Source of the DNA: Escherichia coli
Lineage (GTDB): Bacteria; Pseudomonadota; Gammaproteobacteria; Enterobacterales; Enterobacteriaceae
Assembly: GCF_003334255.1 (NCBI RefSeq)
Contig: NZ_QOWU01000151.1
Length of the DNA: 1,744 nt
Strand: one strand, 5' to 3'
The stretch's first letter is position 1. Every line of letters begins with the position of its first letter. Below, one piece after another: positions 328 to 449 of the stretch. The position numbers and the translations under genes are program-made. The notes below the pieces were generated by a model, which was not told where the DNA came from, did not search any database, and worked only from the letters and a program-made list of their open reading frames with translations.

Positions 328-449
328 TGTGGGTGGCGAGACGTACGAGGTTCGCAGTACCGGCAAACGCAGAACCCGGCCCGACCGAAGTCGGCCCCGT
401 ACGCCCCACCATAATTCGTGTGCGAAAAAGACGTGGCGATACAGTACGC

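Follow-up and report, generated by a model that had tools for sequence, protein, structure and literature searches.

On the minus strand of the 1,744-nucleotide stretch of Escherichia coli DNA analysed here, which we refer to as the window, positions 416..329 hold an antisense RNA gene of the C4/CI family, an assignment of which we are nearly certain. When both strands of the window were scanned against Rfam 15, this segment matched the C4 antisense RNA model (RF01695, which includes the P1/P7 C4 RNA and the P4 CI RNA) over its full length, model positions 1-87 of 87, with a score of 80.4 bits against a gathering threshold of 45 and an E-value of 1e-15, and the match was found on the minus strand only. 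A covariance model of our own (R1) gives the RNA of the window a score of 106 bits. The family is real but ordinary and this RNA is an instance of a kind already known, the structure, processing and antisense logic of C4/CI RNAs having been familiar since the 1990s for P1/P7, P4 and N15. The best explanation of the locus, and one that we consider highly probable, is that the RNA acts as an immunity factor that would prevent an anti-repressor operon in a P2-like prophage from being translated, and would probably block transcription further downstream as well; our confidence is lower where the role of the regulated protein is concerned.

The initial annotation of this DNA had picked out a shorter segment, bounded by two copies of the palindrome CGTACG, as a structured element of undecided strand and open function, and had offered an RNA structure in a 5' leader or a protein-binding site as what it might be. 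Much of what it described is present. The two palindromes lie at 342-347 and 398-403, as a direct reading of the DNA confirms, and are the only two in the window; the 9-nt arms that hold them, CGTACGAGG (342-350) and CCCCGTACG (395-403), are complementary at all but one of their nine positions; and the hairpin CCGAC-CGAA-GTCGG occupies 381-394. The structured segment is also real, but it was drawn too narrowly, with the RNA element spanning 329-416 and its arms reaching 17 nt. Likewise the idea of an RNA structural element was right and the strand can now be supplied, the RNA being that of the minus strand, while the function that had been left open is that of an antisense RNA gene of a family already described in Rfam (RF01695). 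Even the 5' leader was loosely correct, in that the RNA is predicted to be excised from the leader of an operon.

The RNA, its recognition elements and their targets

The architecture of the RNA follows the Rfam structure and our own fold closely. Reading 5' to 3' along the minus strand, it opens with one strand of an outer, acceptor-like helix (395..411, holding the CGTACG at 398-403), whose partner is the 3' strand at 334..350 (holding the CGTACG at 342-347). A repeat finder gives this inverted repeat, 334-350 with 395-411, as 17 nt long, and in the minus-strand RNA all 17 positions pair, four of them as G.U; the single mismatch of the 9-nt repeat described initially is on this strand the G.U pair 397/348. 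Between the two strands of the outer helix stand two hairpins and a junction. Hairpin 1 (381..394), found in both the Rfam structure and the fold, is the hairpin noted previously, and its "CGAA" loop reads UUCG on the minus strand, making it a 5-bp stem closed by a C(UUCG)G tetraloop. Hairpin 2 (359..380), which had been overlooked, has in the Rfam structure a 5-bp stem and a 12-nt loop at 375..364 (GUUCUGCGUUUG), and is followed by a single-stranded 8-nt junction at 358..351 (ACUGCGAA). After the 3' strand of the outer helix comes a short tail, A-C-C, at 333..331. All 27 pairs of this scaffold are standard in the RNA of the window. The predicted mature RNA runs from about 410 to about 332, on the assumption that RNase P cleaves on the 5' side of the first G in the outer helix.

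Two parts of this structure are recognition elements, for which we use the names a'/b', with a1, b1, a2 and b2 for their targets, taken from the P1 and P4 literature. The loop of hairpin 2 is the first and is b'-like, and the junction together with the first bases of the helix that follows (348..358) is the second and is a'-like. Within the junction, CUGCGAA (357..351) is Watson-Crick complementary over 7 nt to UUCGCAG, which occurs at both 325..319 and 501..495, and the pairing can be extended to 9 of 10 positions. The downstream of these two sites belongs to the a2-like target AGUUUCGCAG (319..328, minus strand), which begins one base past the 3' end of the C4 RNA (offset +1 to +4), and the upstream one, at about -90, occupies the second hairpin loop of an IsrK-like RNA that precedes C4. 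For the loop, CUGCGUUUG pairs with CAAACGUAG at 486..478 (b1-like, at about -71) through 9 bp including one G.U, and with CACACGUAGAG at 291..281 (b2-like) at 10 of 11 positions, with one mismatch and one or two G.U. The b2-like target as a whole (280..291, minus strand, offset +37) overlaps AGAGG (284..280), the Shine-Dalgarno sequence of a 73-aa ORF whose AUG follows 7 nt later at 272. A rival pairing of 7-8 bp between the loop and GGCAAAC at the start codon itself (271..264) has a similar score, at -17.4 kcal/mol against -16.8 kcal/mol by RNAduplex for the b2-like site, and the exact loop duplex is therefore uncertain. Among C4 family members, 64-93% of cognate flanks contain a Watson-Crick match of at least 7 nt to the loop or junction, against 5-9% of non-cognate flanks.

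The loop of hairpin 2 is hypervariable among homologues, and its variation can be followed together with that of the targets in an alignment of four sequences, namely the window, both tandem modules of NZ_CP060083 (A and B) and phage P88. The scaffold is almost invariant in this alignment, but the recognition elements switch in step with all four targets. The window and module A have the junction CUGCGAA with UUCGCAG at a1 and a2, and module B and P88 have GUGGAAA with UUUCCAC. The loops are CUGCGUUUG in the window, with b1 and b2 cores CAAACGUAG and CACACGUAG; CUUUGCUAG in module A, with the core CUAGCAAAG; CUUCGUUUG in module B, with CAAACGAAG; and CUGUAGUUG in P88, with CAACUACAG. Each of the three relatives has a different loop, and in each the complementarity of the loop to the b1 and b2 of the same module is perfect.

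Set beside these relatives the allele of the window is less exact, the duplexes of its loop with b1 and b2 each containing a G.U, and that with b2 a mismatch in addition, and it is also rare, being found (at >=99% identity) in only 16 of the 1080 E. coli records that have a relative. Such features are what a genuine C4-family sequence would show if it were a decaying or non-functional copy, with a loop too poorly matched to repress. We hold this to be improbable, for all 27 of 27 scaffold pairs are intact, the junction matches each of its two targets perfectly over 7 nt, and the prophage that carries the RNA looks complete; moreover, the b1 and b2 sites of the window have changed together, since an ACGUAG core is common to both. 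A working antisense RNA with an imperfect loop duplex is the reading that we retain.

Strand and covariation

The two strands of 329-416 differ in how well they fold. The minus strand reaches -45.4 kcal/mol (z = -3.49), a value that none of 200 shuffled sequences equalled, and the plus strand -33.6 kcal/mol (z = -2.09), which 7 of 200 shuffles matched or bettered. The minus strand is better by about 12 kcal/mol because the four G.U among the 17 outer pairs become C/A mismatches on the plus strand.

For a wider comparison, related loci were fetched from IMG/VR by a loose pattern, which fixed CTTCGG, the stem of hairpin 2 and AACC and left the outer helix unconstrained, and our own covariance model, seeded with four close sequences and with the P1-like sequence left out of the seed, yielded 86 matches, 69 of them distinct. 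The alignment (A3) was fitted to this model, and its statistics are biased where hairpin 2, the tetraloop and the pair that closes hairpin 1 are concerned; the fetch pattern placed no constraint on the remaining four pairs of hairpin 1 or on the outer helix. Across the 69 distinct homologues standard pairs fill 99.1% of the pair cells, compared with 74.6% after column shuffling and 33-49% when the partners are slid, and double (compensatory) changes occur in 19 of the 27 pairs. The score for covariation, 0.698, was reached by none of 500 shuffles, for which the value is 0.198. The two parts of the outer helix (helices 1 and 2) are paired in 97.9% and 99.3% of cases, with double changes in 14 of 17 pairs, and helix 3, the stem of hairpin 1, is paired in 100%, with double changes in four of five; the remaining eight pairs are invariant or vary on one side only, and are mostly those that the fetch pattern had fixed. 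Compensatory changes, which the initial annotation had itself named as the check on its proposed structure, are thus abundant, and the RNA structure survives that check: a prophage 97% identical to the window, for example, has A-U in place of G-C inside the very repeat that holds CGTACG. Outside the helices, the tail Cs that follow the outer helix are conserved as C in 64 and 66 of the 69 sequences.

The same alignment bears on the direction in which the element is read. G.U pairs account for 296 of 1850 pair cells (16%), and the structure is strand-specific because of them, as no more than 83% of the cells would pair on the opposite strand. This has to be weighed against the idea that the element is a 5' leader structure of the plus strand, regulating the plus-strand gene that begins downstream of it (656..1120, or 473..1120 as annotated by PGAP), for which it can be said that the plus strand does fold to some degree, with the energy and z-score given above, and that a plus-strand ORF is indeed present. 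The Rfam match, however, is confined to the minus strand, as is the UUCG loop; the outer helix of the window would lose four pairs to C/A mismatches, and G.U is frequent throughout the family; the element lies at least 240 nt upstream of the ATG at 656, beyond a divergent promoter region; and P1, P4, N15 and Stx phages have the same RNA without that neighbouring gene. Together these points leave a plus-strand leader very unlikely, and we continue with the minus-strand antisense RNA.

Equally slight is the chance that the palindromes act in DNA, as operator half-sites or targets of restriction or modification, as a protein-binding site would have it, for although two copies of a 6-bp palindrome stand 56 bp apart where 0.29 are expected in the window, at least two copies also arose in 8 of 200 shuffles, which makes the pair mildly unusual and weak evidence alone, both copies are kept in just 5 of the 69 distinct homologues and CGTACG is absent altogether from 60, in which its positions covary and stay paired through double substitutions, and the pair of hexamers is a by-product of the outer stem, because any self-complementary hexamer that lies in one helix strand is bound to have a copy in the other.

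Several other candidates were tried and rejected in the course of this work. ARAGORN found no tRNA or tmRNA; 329-416 is not an intrinsic terminator, as no T run follows the helix, and the sole terminator-like site on the minus strand is that of the IsrK-like RNA at 472..457; and an Rfam match to sR32 at 1529-1572 (14.4 bits, E = 0.69) is due to chance.

Neighbouring genes and the carrier prophage

Directly upstream of C4 on the minus strand lies the IsrK-like RNA (452..526), related to the P4 seqA RNA, which matches the Rfam isrK model (RF01394) with 67.2 bits against a gathering threshold of 50. It holds both upstream targets, the a1-like one at 503..495 in a hairpin loop and the b1-like one, and it ends in an intrinsic terminator at 472..452, made up of the terminator-like site and a T run. 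A second Rfam model, c4-a1b1 (RF03163), overlaps the isrK match and scores 20.5 bits against a gathering threshold of 46.7, so that the upstream RNA belongs to isrK and not to RF03163 as that family is curated. In front of it a consensus scan picks out a putative sigma-70 promoter (533..562, minus strand), with TTGCCA and TACATT separated by an 18-nt spacer, from which transcription would begin at about 526, where the IsrK-like RNA itself starts; its -10 and start region are conserved in four relatives.

Downstream of C4, the 73-aa ORF (51..272, minus strand) is presumed to be the regulated gene. It is related to the P4 epsilon (derepression) protein by three lines of comparison, namely a match to the Pfam family PF25738, Derepression (i-Evalue 3.7e-7), a pairwise BLASTP alignment to epsilon itself with 32% identity over 50 aa (E = 8e-9), and reciprocal PHROG matches between the two (3688 and 10016). 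Its homologue is annotated as a derepression protein in phage P88 and in some RefSeq genomes. On the strength of this distant homology the product is probably an anti-repressor. An NCBIfam search of the 73-aa ORF returned no match, nor did NCBIfam and PADLOC searches of the neighbouring proteins. The ORF is as long as P1 Icd, but the two do not align, and the candidate relationship to Icd was rejected; for the next ORF (138 aa) no homology to P4 orf151 was found.

These genes are part of a P2-like prophage. E. coli DETEC-S792 contains the window with 100% identity, and there it lies within a complete P2-like prophage adjoining dmsABC, with genes for capsid, terminase, portal, replication, integrase and repressor. 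The element is of the P88-like kind, and its relatives include phage P88 itself (Xuanwuvirus, Peduoviridae). Following the minus strand, the order is a Dam methylase gene, a DUF4406 gene, a 154-aa ORF on the plus strand, the IsrK-like RNA, C4, the 73-aa ORF, the 138-aa ORF and a gpA-like replication endonuclease gene. Elsewhere in the RNA family the first downstream gene encodes an anti-repressor of the Ant/Bro, Rha or KilA type or is an Icd-like ORF, and it starts 45-58 nt past the RNA. Relatives of the 88-nt RNA (at least 80% identity) occur in about 1079 of 5426 complete E. coli genomes, and the RNA goes without annotation in the RefSeq records sampled, most of which have nothing at its position and two of which have an overlapping CDS for a hypothetical protein.

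Some of these prophages contain more than one IsrK-C4 module. NZ_CP060083 has two in tandem (locus L002, 2577-2664 and 3327-3414), each with its own epsilon-like ORF and with differing recognition sequences, and two further loci, L029 and L041, contain three and two C4 matches, respectively.

The remaining genes of the window can be described briefly. The plus-strand CDS is annotated as 215 aa starting at 473 (473-1120) in RefSeq NZ_CP116067, where it crosses the IsrK-like RNA, and in NZ_CP060083 as starting at the equivalent of the ATG at 656 (656-1120, 154 aa). Its protein has two hydrophobic segments and matches phrog_6315, and was without a match in NCBIfam and PADLOC; the gene, transcribed in the direction opposite to that of the early genes, may be a moron. 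Its end is overlapped by 27 nt by a convergent ORF at 1094-1408 (minus strand), which is DUF4406 or nucleoside 2-deoxyribosyltransferase-like (phrog_355), and 1472-1744 (minus strand) is the 3' end of the gene for a Dam-type DNA adenine methylase. In relatives an insertion of about 485 bp with two small ORFs separates the DUF4406 ORF from the Dam-type gene (NZ_CP060083, locus L002, 4433-4884). At the attachment-site end of the prophage, between the integrase gene and dmsA, lies the host sRNA STnc130 (RF02084, 124.8 bits; locus L001, 18771-18905).

Known systems and the proposed mechanism

The two best known members of the family offer the closest comparisons. The C4 RNA of P1/P7 is part of the immI operon (P51b, a1/b1, c4, a2/b2, icd, ant) and is described by the same Rfam model, with which a P1-like phage scores 71.9 bits and the window 80.4. 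That phage has the same scaffold, tail, two recognition elements and target offsets as the window: its junction CUGCUAA is complementary to UUAGCAG right after the 3' end of C4 (+1) and in a hairpin loop about 88 nt upstream, and its loop is complementary to ACGAAUGAGG on the icd Shine-Dalgarno sequence (+28/29) and to a site about 71 nt upstream. The upstream part differs, reaching 56.2 bits with c4-a1b1 (RF03163) in the P1-like phage whereas that of the window scores as isrK, and so do the genes, as the first ORF of the window is epsilon-like and does not align to Icd, and is followed not by an Ant1/2 gene but by the 138-aa ORF and a P2-type replication gene. The carrier, too, is here an integrated P2-like prophage rather than a plasmid prophage as for P1/P7.

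In P4 the CI RNA matches RF01695 (74.9 bits) and the seqA segment upstream of it matches isrK (60.8 bits), within the layout seqA, cI/seqB, seqC, epsilon, orf151, alpha. Its targets are GUGAGAA at +4 and UUCACAGGAGG at +35, the latter on the Shine-Dalgarno sequence of an Icd-like ORF, a geometry like that of the window, and both P4 and the window have an epsilon homologue downstream and then replication genes. P4 differs in having the small Icd-like ORF between CI and epsilon, where in the window the epsilon-like ORF is the first; the 138-aa ORF is unrelated to orf151, the replication gene is gpA-like and not an alpha primase, and the phage that carries the locus is of the helper type, whereas P4 is a satellite. 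By context and gene content the immunity region of P4 is the closest relative of this locus, while in the geometry of the RNA P1 is equally close.

For N15, whose small processed RNA reportedly controls an anti-repressor operon (a finding attributed to Ravin et al. in 1999), the anti-immunity (immC) region with its CA RNA gives a BLAST match to the isrK-C4 region of the window, beside an annotated rho-independent terminator, and the downstream genes differ. The relationship between these systems has been recognised previously, as Barquist et al. in 2013 described IsrK and C4 as structural homologues of the P4 seqA and CI RNAs (PMC3632133), noting that P1, P7 and N15 use similar systems and that IsrK-C4 modules are found in lambdoid prophages as well (PMC3632133). 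The precursors of P4 CI RNA and P1/P7 C4 RNA are substrates of RNase P (PMC5499578). A further parallel is the IsrK/STnc1160/AnrP locus of Gifsy-1 in Salmonella, in which, according to Hershko-Shalev et al. in 2016, read-through of IsrK gives the message for the anti-repressor AnrP, from which a stable STnc1160 RNA is processed, the short form of IsrK base-pairs to the segment downstream, and prophage induction is driven by the locus (PMC4825925). Like the window, it has an IsrK-family RNA that ends in a terminator of its own, beyond which read-through leads to a structured segment and a gene of the anti-repressor type, but there the downstream segment is read as orf45, IsrK acts as an activator, and the regulated protein is AnrP and not epsilon-like (PMC4825925). 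From the Rfam layout we infer that STnc1160 is a C4 homologue. Hfq binding by IsrK and its trans-activation of the downstream message are known for Gifsy-1 only (PMC4825925). A literature search on the C4 module in P88-like phages found no paper.

Taken with the sequence of the window, these parallels suggest the following mechanism. The putative promoter (about 562..533) would be constitutive and would give a transcript consisting of the IsrK/seqA-like segment, with a1 and b1 as decoys and a leaky terminator, and then the C4 RNA, which RNase P, by analogy, would excise by cutting at the outer helix, a tRNA-like structure followed by an ACC tail. The released RNA would display two variable single-stranded elements, the 12-nt loop and the 8-nt junction, on a conserved scaffold, and these would pair with downstream sites in transcripts of the same kind, at 328..319 and at the Shine-Dalgarno site 291..281. 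Translation of the epsilon-like ORF would be blocked in this way, and Rho-dependent polarity, a step drawn from what is known of P1 and P4, would then be expected to silence the 138-aa ORF and the gpA-like endonuclease gene. The IsrK-like RNA may serve as a decoy or an anti-antisense, and the 73-aa protein, if made, would inactivate the C repressor of the prophage, which is encoded outside the window at 17293-17634 of locus L001. The net effect would be that the anti-repressor stays silent in the lysogen, with the sequences of loop and junction setting the specificity of immunity.

As a discovery the RNA matters little, its family being long known and present in Rfam, and what novelty remains lies in the context, that is, an epsilon-like anti-repressor gated directly by a C4/CI RNA in a helper-type P2-like phage, together with the specificity alleles and the tandem modules. 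It is conceivable, although we would not yet favour it, that P88-like prophages carry their own copy of the switch associated with the satellite P4, a C4/CI-type RNA that gates an epsilon-like anti-repressor of their own P2-type C repressor. If that were so, P2-family phages, which are otherwise not SOS-inducible, would have an RNA-controlled route to induction, and the hypervariable loops, with the tandem modules of differing specificity found in some genomes, could also govern cross-immunity or cross-derepression where helper prophages meet P4-like satellites. There is practical value in the identification all the same: it supplies an RNA that RefSeq leaves unannotated in about 1080 complete E. 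coli records, it marks a 73-aa "hypothetical protein" as a probable regulated anti-repressor, and the natural series of alleles provides a ready set of specificity variants for studies of RNA-based phage immunity and of cross-talk between helper and satellite. A related point of annotation concerns the P4 record (NC_001609), in which a CDS at 4169-4585, given as "cI gene product (AA 1-137), transcriptional repressor", overlies the CI RNA (RF01695, 4421-4508) and is the legacy protein annotation of an RNA gene.
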